Assembly (NCBI GenBank): GCA_045586685.1
Contig: JAZNAU010000016.1
Coordinates: 1 to 22,494 of the forward strand
DNA from: Clostridia bacterium
Lineage (GTDB): Bacteria; Bacillota; Clostridia; HGM11514
DNA: 22,494 nt
Reading direction: 5' to 3'
In this document: positions 10,429 to 14,316 of the stretch, piece after piece
Numbering within the stretch: the first letter of the stretch is position 1
Layout: every line of letters begins with the position of its first letter
Position numbers and translations under genes: made by a program
The notes under the pieces: generated by a model
The model's database searches: none
Told to the model about the DNA's origin: nothing
What the model saw: only the letters and a program-made list of their open reading frames with translations

Positions 10429-11940
10429 ATGAAACAGTTGATGAGTTTGATTATTCTGGATGGTTTTGGAATCAATAATGATGAACAGGGCAATGCCATT
10501 CATTCTGCCAAAACACCAAATTTAGATGCCTTGTTCGCCAAATACCCCCATACGCAGATTGCAGCTAGCGGCATGGATGTTGGTCTGCCTGAGGGACAAA
10601 TGGGAAATTCCGAGGTTGGTCACACCAATATTGGTGCGGGCAGAATTGTGTATCAGGAATTGACCCGCATTACCAAATCCATTCAGGATGGAGAGATGTT
10701 TGAAAATATTGAATTAAAAAATGCAATGCAGAATTGCGTTGATAAGGGAACGGCGTTACACCTTTTGGGGCTGTTGTCTGACGGCGGTGTTCATAGCCAC
10801 AACACCCACCTGTATGCTTTAATTGAAATGGCAAAAAGAAAGGGTGTCAAAGATATTTGGGTGCATTGCTTCTTGGACGGCAGAGACGTACCCCCTCAGA
10901 GCGGTAAGGATTTTGTACAGGAATTGCAAGACAAGTTAGCGGAAATCGGTGCAGGAAAGGTAGCAACCGTAATGGGTCGTTACTATGCAATGGACCGTGA
11001 CAACCGTTGGGACCGTGTGGAAAAAGCGTACAACGCCATGGTAAAAGCAGAGGGCGTCACCGTTCCTTGCCCCGTGTGTGCCGTTGCCAATTCCTACAAG
11101 GAAGAAGTTACCGATGAATTTGTGGTTCCTGCAGTGGTAGAAGGCTTTGAAGGAATCAAAGAAAACGATTCCATGATTTTCTTTAATTTCCGTCCCGACC
11201 GTGCAAGAGAAATCACCAGAACCTTTGTGGACCCTGATTTTGAAGGCTTTAAGCGGGACTATTTCCCCGTTCAATATGTATGTATGACCCAGTATGATGC
11301 GGCAATGCCAAATGTATCTGTTGCTTATAAGCCTGAAAGCCTGGTGGACACCTTCGGAGAATACATCAGCAAAAAGGGCTTGAAACAGCTCCGTATTGCT
11401 GAAACGGAAAAATATGCCCATGTTACCTTCTTCTTTAATGGCGGCGTAGAAAAAACCTATGAGGGAGAAAGCAGAATTTTGGTGAACTCTCCCAAGGTTG
11501 CCACTTATGATTTGCAACCTGAAATGAGTGCTTATGAAGTCACCGAAAAGGTGTGTGAACAAATCAGAGGAAGAGAGTTGGATGTCATTATTCTAAACTT
11601 TGCCAACTGTGATATGGTTGGACATACAGGAGTATTTGATGCGGCAGTTGCAGCAGTGGAAGCGGTTGATGCTTGCGTTGGAAAGGTAATGGAGGAAATC
11701 GAAAAAGTAAATGGAATTGCTATTATTACTGCTGACCACGGTAATGCAGATTGCATGGTGGATGACACCACCGGCGGACCTTTTACTGCTCATACCACCA
11801 ATCCTGTTCCCTTGCTCCTTAATCAGAAGGGTGCAAAATTAAAGAAAGGCAGACTTGCCGACATTGCTCCCACCATGCTTGACTTAATGGGGCTGGAAAA
11901 ACCAGCATCCATGACAGGAGAATCCTTATTAGTAAAATAA
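10429..11940 (+). CDS. gpmI: 2,3-bisphosphoglycerate-independent phosphoglycerate mutase
   Basis: [39 protein letters not shown] and TADHGN motifs. Confidence 0.98.
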
Positions 11941-11966
11941 AAAGAGATATAAAAAGTCTAGATCTT

Positions 11967-12000
11967 AAAAGGGGAAAACATATATTGTTTTCCTTTTTTT
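11967..12000 (+). terminator. gpmI intrinsic terminator
   Basis: GGGGAAAACA-TATAT-TGTTTTCC followed by a T run. Confidence 0.7.
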
Positions 12001-12148
12001 CTATAAATAAACTTCGCTTCTCGACGTACCTTTGTACACCTTCAGGTAAACCCCTAGCAAAGCTTGGATTGAGTTTGTCCATTCCGAAACAGTTTCTTTC
12101 CCTATTTTAACTATGTGGGAGTCTACTGTTGAAACTTCTTTAAAAAAT

Positions 12149-12180
12149 TATTTATAAAGGGGGATGGTGTCATCCCCCTT
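12149..12180. repeat. 32-bp hairpin-containing direct repeat, copy 1
   Basis: TATTTATAAAGGGGGATGGTGTCATCCCCCTT is 29/32 identical to 12648-12679 and contains a perfect 10-bp stem (AAGGGGGATG/CATCCCCCTT). Confidence 0.85.
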
Positions 12181-12633
12181 CACCCCCACAGCCTCTCGGT
12201 CTTTGCTCAAGGCGGCTGTTAGCACTTGGGCACGAATGATTTTTGTGTCGCTTCGATTCGCAGCTTTCTGCTCAGCTCAGCTAAAATACCGCAAGCAGCA
12301 GCGGAAACGGATATGCGGTATTTTACACCAAAATCATCCCAGCCCTTCATTGACAGCCGACCATTCGCTCCGACAGGTCGGCAAAAGGGCGGCAAAGCCG
12401 CCAAACGCCATGTTGGAGGCGACTGACAGATGTTTGCGAAAGAGGGACGGATGTACCGCAACGGACAGCGAAATCAGTTTCCTTTGCGGTCGCTGAGCGT
12501 TAGTGAGGCGGAGCAAAGGGTTTGCGACTCCGAAACGGCGGTAAAAGAAGTCCCGAAGGAGCAATTACAGATGCCCGAGCCGTAAACCCAGGCGCGGTGG
12601 GGGAGTTTGAGGGGGCGACTGTTGAGCCCCCTC
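12181..12633. ncRNA. Candidate large structured non-coding element (RNA or ssDNA), family unrecognised
   Basis: About 56% GC by hand count (12181-12630) inside AT-rich flanks. At least eight nested helices, including pairings between the 5' and 3' ends. No credible ORF. Confidence 0.55.
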
Positions 12634-12647
12634 GGGAAAAGAAATGG

Positions 12648-12679
12648 TATTTATAAAGGGGGATTGTATCATCCCTCTT
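12648..12679. repeat. 32-bp hairpin-containing direct repeat, copy 2
   Basis: TATTTATAAAGGGGGATTGTATCATCCCTCTT; starts 499 bp after the start of copy 1. Confidence 0.85.
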
Positions 12680-12704
12680 TACTTTTACAGTTTTCTATTT
12701 TTAC

Positions 12705-12740
12705 AAAAAAATCCCCCACATAGATTGTGAGAGATTTTTT
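12705..12740 (-). terminator. Citrate synthase intrinsic terminator
   Basis: Minus strand ATCTCTCACA-ATCTA-TGTGGGGGAT followed by TTTTTT. The stem is complete only on the minus strand, through two G-U pairs. Confidence 0.75.
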
Positions 12741-12757
12741 CACTGTATAGAGGTTGT

Positions 12758-14113
12758 TTAACGCTCGTCAATAGGCACATATTTCTGTCTGGGGGAAACG
12801 CTTTTGTATGCAGGGCGGATGATTTTTCCGTTAGCATACACTTCCTCGATTCTGTGTGCACACCAGCCCACAATACGAGCCATGGCAAAAATGGGTGTAA
12901 ACAGTTCTTCGGGAATATTCAGTATCCGATAAAGTAGACCTGAGTAGAAATCCACGTTGGTTACTGCATGACGGCTATATTTTTGACGTAATACAGCGGG
13001 CACTAGTTTTTCCACTCGTTCATATAACCGATATTCCTGTTCAAACTCTGTTCCCAGAGCCAGCTTTTCCACCTGTGCTTTTAATGCGCCGGCACGGGGG
13101 TCGGAAACAGTATAAACTGCATGACCAAAGCCGTAAATCAAACCTGTTTTGTCAAATTCTTCTTTGTATAACACCTTGGTCAAATATTGGAACAGTTCGT
13201 CCTCATCTTCCCAATTTTCAACCTTTGCTTCCAAATCAAGCATCATATTTCTTGCTTTAATATTGGCACCGCCGTGCTTAAAGCCTTTTAATGCACCTAC
13301 GGCTGTTGCAATAACAGAATAAGTATCTGTTCCCGAAGAAGAAACAACGTGAGTGGCAAAAGCGGAGTTGTTACCGCCTCCGTGTTCTGCATGAAGGGTC
13401 AGGGCAATATCCAACGCTTTTGCTTCAGCCTCGGTATATTGGTTGTCAAGTCTTGTCAGATGGAGCAGATTTTCCGCAATGGATGCTCCCGGTTTTGGGG
13501 TGTGAATGACTAAGCTTTGCCCGTCATAATAATGCCGTTTTGCCTGATATGCATAAGCAATCAGGGCGGGGAAACGGGAGAGCAGAGCAATGGACTGGTT
13601 CATGATATTGGTAAAATCCAGACTGTCCGGATTTTCGTCATAGGAATACAGAGCCAGCACACTCCGAGCCAGCTTGTTCATAATATTACTGCTGGGAGCC
13701 TTTAAAATCATATCTTCCACAAAATTGGCCGGCAACTCCTGATTCTGTTCAATCAGTGAACGGAAATTTGCAAGCTCTGATGCACTGGGCAAGGAACCGA
13801 GCAACAGAAGATAACAGGTTTCTTCAAAACCATACCGGTTTTCCTTTTCGCTGGCAGTAATCAAATCCTTTACATCAATTCCGCGGTAAAAAAGTCTTCC
13901 GTCGATAGGCACCCGTTCGTTATCGTCGATAATATATCCACGCACCTCGCCGATTGAGGTCAGACCCACCAAAACCCCTGTGCCATCAGAGTTACGAAGT
14001 CCTCGTTTTACGTTATACGCAGAGTATCTTTCGGGGTCAATCGTATAATTTTGTTTTACATTTTCCTGACTCATAAGGGTCGGATTTGTGTTTTTTTGAA
14101 TTTTTTCAGACAA
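12758..14113 (-). CDS. gltA: Citrate synthase (Si-type citrate/2-methylcitrate synthase family)
   Basis: LHAEHGGGNNS, GALKGFKHGGAN, GFGHAVY...DPR, NVDFYSG and ARIVGWCAH motifs. Start reassigned to TTG 14113 behind AAGGAGG. Confidence 0.92.
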   Translation of the reverse strand: MSEKIQKNTNPTLMSQENVKQNYTIDPERYSAYNVKRGLRNSDGTGVLVGLTSIGEVRGYIIDDNERVPIDGRLFYRGIDVKDLITASEKENRYGFEETCYLLLLGSLPSASELANFRSLIEQNQELPANFVEDMILKAPSSNIMNKLARSVLALYSYDENPDSLDFTNIMNQSIALLSRFPALIAYAYQAKRHYYDGQSLVIHTPKPGASIAENLLHLTRLDNQYTEAEAKALDIALTLHAEHGGGNNSAFATHVVSSSGTDTYSVIATAVGALKGFKHGGANIKARNMMLDLEAKVENWEDEDELFQYLTKVLYKEEFDKTGLIYGFGHAVYTVSDPRAGALKAQVEKLALGTEFEQEYRLYERVEKLVPAVLRQKYSRHAVTNVDFYSGLLYRILNIPEELFTPIFAMARIVGWCAHRIEEVYANGKIIRPAYKSVSPRQKYVPIDER

Positions 14114-14188
14114 ACAAACAACCTCCTTCTTGTATAAAAACGAATGTTGAAAGCTTCTTTCTTTCAAAATTATTTTTTTATCCAGTTT

Positions 14189-14217
14189 ATTATATCATAA
14201 TTTTAAATATTTTGCAA
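14189..14217 (-). promoter_or_regulatory. sigmaA-type promoter for citrate synthase
   Basis: Minus strand TTGCAA (14217-14212), 17 bp spacer, TATAAT (14194-14189) with an extended -10 TG. Confidence 0.75.
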
Positions 14218-14287
14218 GAATTTATTTTTTAAATTTCATTGATTTGTTGTTTCAAAAAAAAATATTTAACTTTTTCTTCAATTTATA

Positions 14288-14316
14288 TTGCAAAATGTTC
14301 AAAAATAGTGTATTAT
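14288..14316 (+). promoter_or_regulatory. sigmaA-type promoter for the cdaR-like/ftsEX operon
   Basis: TTGCAA (14288-14293), 17 bp spacer, TATTAT (14311-14316). Confidence 0.65.

Follow-up and report, generated by a model that had tools for sequence, protein, structure and literature searches.

A tail-to-tail pair of many-hairpin, non-coding repeat modules between the phosphoglycerate mutase and citrate synthase genes of a Clostridia bacterium

The stretch of DNA analysed here, hereafter the window, consists of 22,494 nucleotides (nt) from a Clostridia bacterium (GenBank assembly GCA_045586685.1, contig JAZNAU010000016.1), in which a block rich in guanine plus cytosine (GC), at 12149-12679, is flanked at the left by the open reading frame (ORF) of a cofactor-independent phosphoglycerate mutase (gpmI; 10429-11940, + strand; iPGM_N, 1.5e-88) and at the right by that of a citrate synthase (gltA; 12758-14167, - strand; Pfam match, 4.7e-109). 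The GC content is 0.561 over 12183-12633 and 0.537 over 12149-12679, the window as a whole having 0.425 and the genome 0.41. We report that this block comprises two modules, placed tail to tail, of a many-hairpin non-coding repeat not described before, and that together they make up one complete pair; the left half of the pair is designated module A and the right half module B.

An earlier description of the window from its letters alone (the sequence-only reading) had taken the block for a non-coding, strongly structured element of an undescribed kind, and in those respects the description proved accurate. Its seven helices, long-range or nested, and its four local hairpins have exactly the letters and coordinates claimed, and neither of the two longest internal ORFs (110 and 51 amino acids, aa) matched Pfam. 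RNAfold applied to 12149-12690 gave -223.7 kcal/mol for the + strand and -217.6 kcal/mol for the - strand, with a z-score of -5.95 for each and none of 100 shuffles folding as well, and the minimum-energy fold of the + strand reproduced the nesting that had been described. Rfam gave no match at or above the gathering score anywhere in the window; the 17 matches obtained at E<=10 within 11900-12800 were all far under gathering, and none of these lay on the body of the element, the best of them (26.4 bits, against a gathering score of 56) sitting on a flanking terminator. At six loci with relatives, the sole Rfam match was an S10 leader outside the module.

The anatomy of the block was resolved with a covariance model, R1, built from eight copies of module A plus four copies from a genome of another genus (G008), with the nested helices of the sequence-only reading and the head hairpin as its structure, and without any B sequence. 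The copy of A in the window was used in that construction, so that its own score holds by construction. On the - strand at 12404-12642, R1 gave 43.2 bits (E ~1e-10) over all of its 235 positions, and the B copies of sister genomes matched it equally; in the model alignment A and B are ~58% identical. Since the right half thus matches the model at full length on the - strand, the block consists of two inverted copies of one module. Common to both are a G5/C5 head hairpin, a C-run, a conserved junction stretch of the form CGCCG.TTC, a small hairpin, and a long hairpin whose loop bears in either module the motif GCA..GAAA..GAT; the consensus fold obtained from B copies alone has the same architecture as that of A. 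The coordinates of these parts are given in Table 1.

Table 1. Coordinates of the features of the module pair and of its immediate context, with the evidence for each (R1, model of the whole module; R2, model of the junction core).
Feature	Position	Strand	Evidence or remark
Terminator-like hairpin with T-run, downstream of the phosphoglycerate mutase gene	11967..12000	+	Read in the sequence; context, not element
Degenerate copy of the right-end hairpin H1, in the left arm of the ~70-nt bracketing repeat	12114..12140	+	Alignment 12114-12183/12608-12682
Module A (left half), in the sense orientation of the model	12148..12382	+	R1, 274.7 bits (by construction)
P1, head hairpin of A (AAGGGGGATG/CATCCCCCTT)	12157..12180	+	6/10 pairs with changes on both sides
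C-run after P1, kept in all subtypes	12183..12189	+	Alignments; equals the 5' arm of the outermost closing stem of the sequence-only reading
Three-way-junction core of A: P4, small hairpin P4a (GCAG/CTGC), P5	12237..12340	+	R2, 92.2 bits (core in the R2 seed); covariation
P5 hairpin of A; loop 12294-12313 (AGCAGCAGCGGAAACGGATA) with the family motif GCA..GAAA..GAT	12282..12325	+	
Spacer hairpin GGCGGC/GCCGCC between the two tails	12388..12402	.	A different hairpin there in sister copies
Module B (right half), inverted diverged paralogue of A	12404..12642	-	R1, 43.2 bits, model positions 1-235
Hairpin X (CGCC/GGCG) at the tail of B	12406..12421	.	
GTTTGCGA, first copy of an 8-nt direct repeat	12432..12439	+	Second copy at 12520-12527
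Three-way-junction core of B	12444..12549	-	R2, 99.9 bits (core in the R2 seed)
P5 hairpin of B, loop CCGCAAAGGAAACTGATTT read on the - strand	12459..12503	-	
H1, the P1 head hairpin of B (GAGGGGGC/GCCCCCTC)	12609..12633	-	
DR', slightly decayed second copy of the head hairpin of A, in the right arm of the bracketing repeat	12648..12682	+	89% identical to 12149-12183
Terminator-like hairpin with T-run, downstream of the citrate synthase gene	12705..12740	-	Read in the sequence; context, not element

The sequence-only reading had interpreted the block as a single multi-domain RNA of ~450 nt closed by a 5'-3' stem, and that claim is not supported, the right half being an inverted copy of the left. 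In its broader form—the whole ~450-500 nt as one large RNA or ribozyme-like fold with such a stem—we consider the proposal improbable, even though the + strand minimum-energy fold does have that architecture at a z-score of -5.95, though convergent pairs, and not single modules, predominate in a distant family, and though the heads are complementary in that family too (for example, CCCCAAAACGGCC versus GGCCGTTTTAAGGGG). The four long-range closing helices pair the head region of A with the head region of B, a complementarity that arises automatically because the head regions are homologous and lie in opposite orientation. Furthermore, the pairing of these stems is not upheld. Across the genus's other two complete doublets, CTCGG/CCGAG keeps two and three of its five pairs, CTTTGCTC/GAGCAAAG keeps six of eight in both, and CCCCCAC/GTGGGGG keeps five of seven in one of the two, with no compensated change in any closing stem, whereas the helices within module A retain 9-12 of their 10-12 pairs in the same two. 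The substitutions among homologs, by which the sequence-only reading had proposed to judge its pairings, therefore speak against the closing stems and in favor of the helices inside the modules. In addition, single modules are common, within a doublet the stems of head hairpin and core differ from one half to the other, and the - strand folds as well as the +.

The fold of the individual module, for its part, is well supported by covariation. In the alignment of A with the G008 copies, the nested helices are paired in 89.1% of the cells, versus 39-47% when the partners are slid, and 12 of the 47 pairs are changed on both sides, although only two lineages contribute. For the three-way-junction core we aligned 15 copies representing seven subtypes (A, B, G008, G007, G004, G150, and G093), the cores of both window modules among them; RNAalifold deduced 21 pairs from these, 17 with compensatory double changes, and the same 15 cores served for the construction of a second model, R2. 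A set of 45 cores (43 distinct, from 22 loci) from the distant family f46, when fitted to R2—a procedure that favors the structure—were paired in 92.1% of the cells, versus 38-46% with slid partners, with double changes in 20 of the 21 pairs and 251 double-change cells as against 64 +/- 7 in shuffles. The stems in that family are hypervariable, with several pair types at most positions, and the loops constant: ACTYA in the small hairpin, YCNGCARMGGAAANTGAT in the long hairpin, and TTCCGATT in the head hairpin, together with a further hairpin of constant sequence (GCCYCGCAGGGGC). Loops are likewise conserved across the subtypes, the conserved loop of P5 measuring ~20 nt. In module B, the P5 is backed by compensatory changes among the B copies (GCGA/TCGC to GTGA/TCAC and TCGA/TCGA); at 12455-12490 the sequence-only reading had paired these letters differently, as a local hairpin.

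These substitutions follow the helices and not the codons, which observation bears on the possibility that the block is a decayed protein-coding gene. The 110-aa ORF is open from 12164 to 12496, yet it has no Pfam match, a result obtained with no search of a large protein database; moreover, the peptides of the same frame, as read from the alignments, are unrelated between genera where the base pairs are kept. We regard a decayed gene as next to inconceivable.

One module copy of G008 (locus L016, contig C12) has its P5 loop split by an insertion of ~270 nt with terminal inverted repeats of ~22 nt (AGGCAACCGAGAGGCGAACCCT...reverse complement), which resembles a separate element of the miniature inverted-repeat transposable type that landed in the module.

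A direct repeat of ~70 nt, absent from the sequence-only reading, brackets the block (12114-12183 versus 12608-12682 in local alignment) and is sequence of the element itself and not of the target. In sister genomes an H1-like hairpin precedes nearly every A-type copy, and the stretch ~12406-12434, with hairpin X, occurs in A-only and B-only copies alike.

The sequence-only reading had likewise missed that the element is not single-copy. A BLAST of the block against its own genome (1.55 Mb) returned partial matches at three further places, four in all: two pieces of the right half, adjoining each other, between ispD- and ispF-like genes, and two left heads of ~70 nt. With one more head remnant, the total for this genome comprises one full A and one full B, both in the window, one partial B, and three A-head fragments; the gene names given here and below for the loci of copies (e.g., ispD, ispF) are our own reading of the ORFs. 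The partial B, on contig C30 (G000:C30:20092-20242), lacks exactly the stretch between the two GTTTGCGA octamers, a loss that resembles a slipped-mispairing deletion and that removed part of the junction core. Three genomes of the same genus hold many copies of the block at 85-93% identity by BLAST, which fall into A (~12143-12434 of the window) and B (~12406-12644), the two being found together, alone, or in the order B-A; the A-only and B-only copies of those genomes lie in the spacers ispD-ispF, pyrE-pyrB, cinA-recA, and lgt-ybaK. Eight copies of module A in same-genus genomes have 84-95% identity. The other genus (G008) contains at least seven A-like copies, whose identity by BLAST is 72-76% over stretches of ~105 nt; over the whole module the identity of the G008 copies to the window is ~59% in the covariance-model alignment, with the nested helices kept.

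Beyond these genera, R1 matched 8 of 12 genomes of the window's own order, and one same-genus genome, G006, contained no copy at a completeness of 98%. With R2 we found matches in 5 of 151 genomes of a sample of the class, in 32 of 61 genomes of family f46—including 29 of the 36 genomes of its genus g51, at 1 to 23 matches per genome—and in 7 of 55 genomes of family f62. The core model places the modules in three GTDB families of Clostridia. The arrangement recurs as well: the two cores of the window lie 103 nt apart, first + and then -, and in f46 there are at least 29 tight pairs of that same order (58 of the 150 matches listed). Twenty-two f46 loci that we picked as pairs—a choice by which 22 of 22 expresses no rate—were all confirmed, with gaps of 56-93 nt, and the halves of an f46 pair are different variants, in both the stems of the head hairpin and those of the core. 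The module measures ~235 nt here and ~330 nt in f46. Because the convergent pair recurs in distant lineages, the pair of ~0.5 kb constitutes a unit of organisation; the block is accordingly one unit, as the sequence-only reading had supposed, in the sense of a pair that recurs as a whole in a distant family and not in that of a single RNA.

No module was found in phages, plasmids, or viral contigs. BLAST of the block against phage and plasmid collections gave no match; in viral contigs neither the loop pattern nor the head pattern had a single stretch, and when the loop pattern was relaxed, R2 confirmed none of the 46 stretches obtained (one partial match of 18.6 bits). Among metagenome contigs, 25 stretches fitted the loop pattern, none of them a module (one loop-only match of 19.2 bits), and among genome contigs 27 did so, six being real modules by R1 (uncultured Clostridia and metagenome-assembled genomes of Congzhengia sp.) and the others chance occurrences.

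Other repeats are found beside module copies. Directly upstream of the G008 modules (L037, 1250-1500, and others) there are three to four tandem units of ~21 nt, each a mini-hairpin (GCCGNAAGGC-like) followed by AATTCATGA; that stretch of G008 matches more than 10 places in G011 at 87-91%, and such arrays stand directly upstream of the G011 copies as well. A different repeat family, in L004 at 1200-1400 (G000:C43, upstream of an A-head fragment) and in L014 (G001:C77), presents GGGGGTGGAGGCTAGACAGAGAAAAGCCTATCCCCCG twice, ~140 nt apart, plus GAGCAGTGAAAC..TAAGCTGCAAG. Finally, just downstream of a module copy in L010 (G008:C8), a tandem duplication of 231 nt (75% identity; 1721-2182) is followed by a small ORF with a CCFAGH motif, and a similar ORF adjoins a copy in G003.

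Copies have been gained and lost between sister species, as can be seen in orthologous sites that are filled in one genome and empty in another. The pyrE-pyrB spacer, which contains an A in G005 and a B in G001, is empty in the window's own genome, as is the cinA-recA spacer, filled in G003; and at one site of the own genome only a head remnant is present where G001 has a full A. The identities among A copies track neither genome nor locus: the A of the window shares 95% with a copy of G003 that is not its ortholog and 87% with the one that is, and within G008 four copies agree at 92-99%. Where G003 has the orthologous gltA locus, identity amounts to 88% for the element, as against 84.9% for the gene and 70% for its third codon positions, a conservation that points to either constraint or homogenisation between copies. 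The outer head hairpins of the pair are inverted homologues, and the fragments found in the genus fit contiguous arcs of a single circular order of ~499 nt—head hairpins, A, X, B, H1, head hairpins—some of them exceeding one unit (the window with ~1.15 units, and G003:C251 with ~1.1 units in a different phase). That pattern would result from a circular intermediate as well as from recombination at H1 and X, the shared boundary hairpins.

When the two strands of each copy are compared, the one opposite to the model folds better in all 25 of the copies, by 4-23 kcal/mol, an advantage due mostly to base composition since the z-scores are similar on both strands; the model-sense strand contains 69-85 C versus 52-59 G in six of the seven copies tested. 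Wobble pairs are scarce: 3 G-U and 4 A-C in 300 core cells, and ~7 G-U among 897 cells of the f46 cores (<1%). In an earlier alignment, whose B-type rows are unreliable, the counts of G-U versus A-C were 1 versus 23 in the head hairpin, 57 versus 27 in the long stems, and 10 versus 6 in P5. Wobbles that are rare and symmetric fit a constraint on both strands, be it through DNA hairpins, cruciforms, or transcripts of both, and are not expected if an RNA were transcribed from one strand alone. By virtue of the dyad symmetry, we infer, the two strands carry the same set of hairpins.

That the modules are nonetheless structured non-coding RNA genes—protein-binding RNAs, or small RNAs with the C-run as seed—the window then containing two convergent paralogues and no mobile DNA, is the principal alternative and, in our estimation, a tenable if less than probable one. 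It would account for the massive covariation, the conserved loops, and the nearly complete integrity of the stems in 45 diverged f46 copies, for the retention in all subtypes of a C-run directly after the head hairpin, and for an element that exceeds the adjacent gene's third codon positions in conservation. Some doublets (6 of the 17 classifiable) are flanked by divergent genes, a setting where there is no read-through from the neighbours, and B in its own orientation ends with a hairpin and then CTTTTG (12402-12388, - strand). Against RNA genes stand a proportion of G-U below 1% of the paired cells, no higher than that of A-C and unusual for a one-strand RNA, a model-sense strand richer in C than in G, likewise unusual for a structured RNA, and the gain and loss of copies between sister species, with G006 devoid of any. 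Nor was a conserved promoter found: no conserved sigma-70-like site occurs upstream of the modules (none at all in a G008 copy), the promoter-like sites in the window and in the G093 doublet are at no comparable position upstream of the modules, and the other copies do not share a TTGAAA-18-TATAAA that was read by eye at the left of the one in the window. A search of sequencing runs listed six DNA runs, each with ~5-6% of the sampled words, and no RNA run, a result that has no bearing on expression.

A further alternative would make of the block a cis-acting device for the transcripts of gpmI and gltA, between which it would serve as a two-way terminator, an insulator, or a 3'-end stabiliser. 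The convergent setting of the window would suit such a device, as would the left head hairpin: P1 of A scores as a terminator-like site on the - strand, and a simple terminator scan listed it there (12183-12154) and neither of the hairpins flanking the genes. A hairpin with a T-run behind it is present for the A head on the - strand and for one G093 head hairpin, and absent from the head hairpin of B and from those of G008. Nevertheless, both genes have terminator-like hairpins of their own outside the element, the one after the citrate synthase gene being kept along with that gene in two sister genomes (L006, L026). Among the genus copies situated between co-directional genes, the + strand of the window runs with the genes in 10 of 11 (by crude ORF calls), a bias that fits the avoidance of terminator-like hairpins on the - strand and that, for a cis device, looks like selection against terminating orientations. 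The 22 f46 doublets, however, are in co-directional (7), divergent (6), convergent (4), and unclassifiable (5) gene settings; since they show no preference for gene 3' ends, the element is not specifically a gene-end device. Terminators, moreover, need no three-way junction with conserved loops. We accordingly judge an action in cis to be improbable. On the far side of the citrate synthase gene, the spacer to the next + strand gene (14100-14300) is very rich in A and T (GC 0.19-0.23) and is presumably a divergent promoter region.

The explanation we put forward, and that we hold to be about evenly poised between right and wrong, is that the doublet is a REPIN-like, dyad-symmetric, non-coding genomic replicator in which the folded strands are what matters. 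Module A (+ strand) and its diverged paralogue B (- strand) are joined tail to tail, with the G/C head hairpins pointing outward and the ~70-nt repeat bracketing the whole; the feature that is kept is the fold of the module, namely its head hairpin, C-run, long stem, and three-way junction with constant loops. The symmetry would permit either DNA strand, or a transcript of either, to present the same hairpins, and the element would be copied, moved, or maintained by a putative trans-acting protein through recognition of the conserved loops. We infer, then, that selection sees folded single strands and that a protein partner exists, and consider that the element probably sits passively at this locus between two genes with their own terminators. 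The folded single-stranded DNA mobile element that the sequence-only reading had offered as its second option comes close to such a folded-strand replicator; the observations of that reading stand, and its interpretation is in part supported. A stronger formulation, which we advance tentatively, would make of the doublet a new class of element: a dyad-symmetric array of hairpins, 0.5-0.7 kb in all and with invariant loops, that a putative protein copies or maintains by way of a folded single-stranded intermediate, or else a new family of structured RNAs from both strands. The circular-arc fragments leave room for a rolling-circle or circular intermediate.

Several observations weigh against a REPIN-like replicator. 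The f46 copies are only ~50-65% alike and yet nearly every one has perfect stems, for which a per-copy function, such as that of an RNA gene family, accounts more simply than does selfish DNA, whose old copies should decay; with intact stems in nearly all the diverged copies, therefore, the RNA-gene alternative stays alive. Templated correction of imperfect palindromes could mimic the Watson-Crick covariation, but not the conservation of the loops. No target-site duplication, such as would bound a miniature inverted-repeat transposable element (MITE), was seen in three comparisons of filled with empty sites, at which the ends are blurred by other repeats and deletions, and the arcs of a circular order are not predicted by the analogy with REPINs. 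The search for a partner enzyme, too, was unfavorable. Neither R2 cores nor R1 modules were present within ~1.5 kb of the genes for Y1_Tnp (IS200/RAYT-type) proteins (0 of 11 and 0 of 6 loci, respectively), the weak RAYT-like ORF of the own genome is not near a module copy, and no TnpB zinc-ribbon domain was found in that genome, so that the Y1 and TnpB searches linked no enzyme to the element.

Searches for Rep_1 and Y2_Tnp gave nothing, but their controls were silent too, and no nuclease, reverse transcriptase, or transposase gene stood beside the module copies examined. The two reverse transcriptase genes of the own genome are neither near a module nor accompanied by a group II intron RNA. 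One (L033, G000:C11:33893-37465; 321 aa) has a helix-turn-helix-like protein on one side and an AAA-type ATPase on the other, and the second (L034, G000:C32:50634-54377; 505 aa) adjoins a four-helix-bundle-like protein of 123 aa; the former looks retron-like or defence-like, and the latter may belong to a diversity-generating retroelement. The short RAYT-like Y1 ORF (107 aa; G000:C13, L032) contains a stretch of ~27 nt that recurs inverted just upstream of the gene (1668-1695, 1812-1840) and may be rearranged or truncated.

The closest known system is that of the REPINs—REP doublets forming hairpins (PMC3116915, PMC3337134)—and the RAYT transposases. The likeness resides in a unit of two inverted repeat copies with a short spacer, as found in the pair of the window, in the existence of single copies, in diverged intergenic populations inherited vertically with turnover, and in a sequence without coding capacity that would rely on a trans-acting protein. 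REP units are ~20-40 nt long, and the two REPs of a REPIN pair with each other, whereas the halves here, of ~235 nt (~330 nt in f46), fold alone into hairpins plus a three-way junction, are only ~50-60% alike within a pair, and pair solely through their heads, in a manner that decays; nor is any Y1/RAYT gene flanked by modules at the loci counted above. Because both the size with self-pairing and the flanking of a RAYT gene differ, the element is not a member of the REPINs.

The BIMEs of E. coli and the NIMEs of Neisseria are mosaic intergenic repeats. So are the BOX elements of Streptococcus pneumoniae (PMC3049150). With all three the modules share a stable fold, an intergenic location, and a modular make-up of hairpin-bounded pieces that are combined, truncated, and permuted; they differ in that there is no sequence relation, and that those repeats are simple hairpins of 45-150 nt for which neither a conserved junction nor loops conserved across bacterial families are known. 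The large RNAs of Rfam (OLE, ROOL, GOLLD, HEARO/IscB omega RNA, raiA, group I/II introns, RNase P) are similar in size, in GC richness within an AT-rich genome, and in a nested multi-helix fold with covariation, HEARO having many copies per genome as well, but no model of these matches, nor does any of tmRNA or the self-cleaving ribozymes, and G-U pairs are nearly absent from the modules. As to the attC sites, they too are multi-copy, with stems free in sequence and with the structure and a few unpaired positions kept, a pattern that fits the recognition of a folded single DNA strand. They are, however, single imperfect hairpins of 57-141 nt in arrays beside cassettes and an integrase gene, whereas the copies described here are scattered singly or in pairs, with no cassette arrays, no search aimed at intI having been made.

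Our word searches of the literature found no description of the element; Fremin and Bhatt (2021; PMC8040213) tabulate thousands of candidate RNA motifs from the gut, among which the motif of the module may figure. For annotation, the case carries a caution in that two inverted copies of a smaller structured unit can mimic a large RNA with a terminal stem.

Repeats of the interspersed, structured kind have been studied extensively in Proteobacteria and streptococci, and little is known of them in the uncultured gut Clostridia with small genomes. The family described here provides a large natural covarying set, with 43 distinct cores from 22 loci alone; and since it has a defined three-way junction with invariant loops, a binding partner can be sought directly. 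If that partner were a new strand-specific DNA enzyme, the modules would belong to a new system of transposition or maintenance; if, alternatively, the modules were RNAs, they would constitute a new multi-copy class missing from Rfam.

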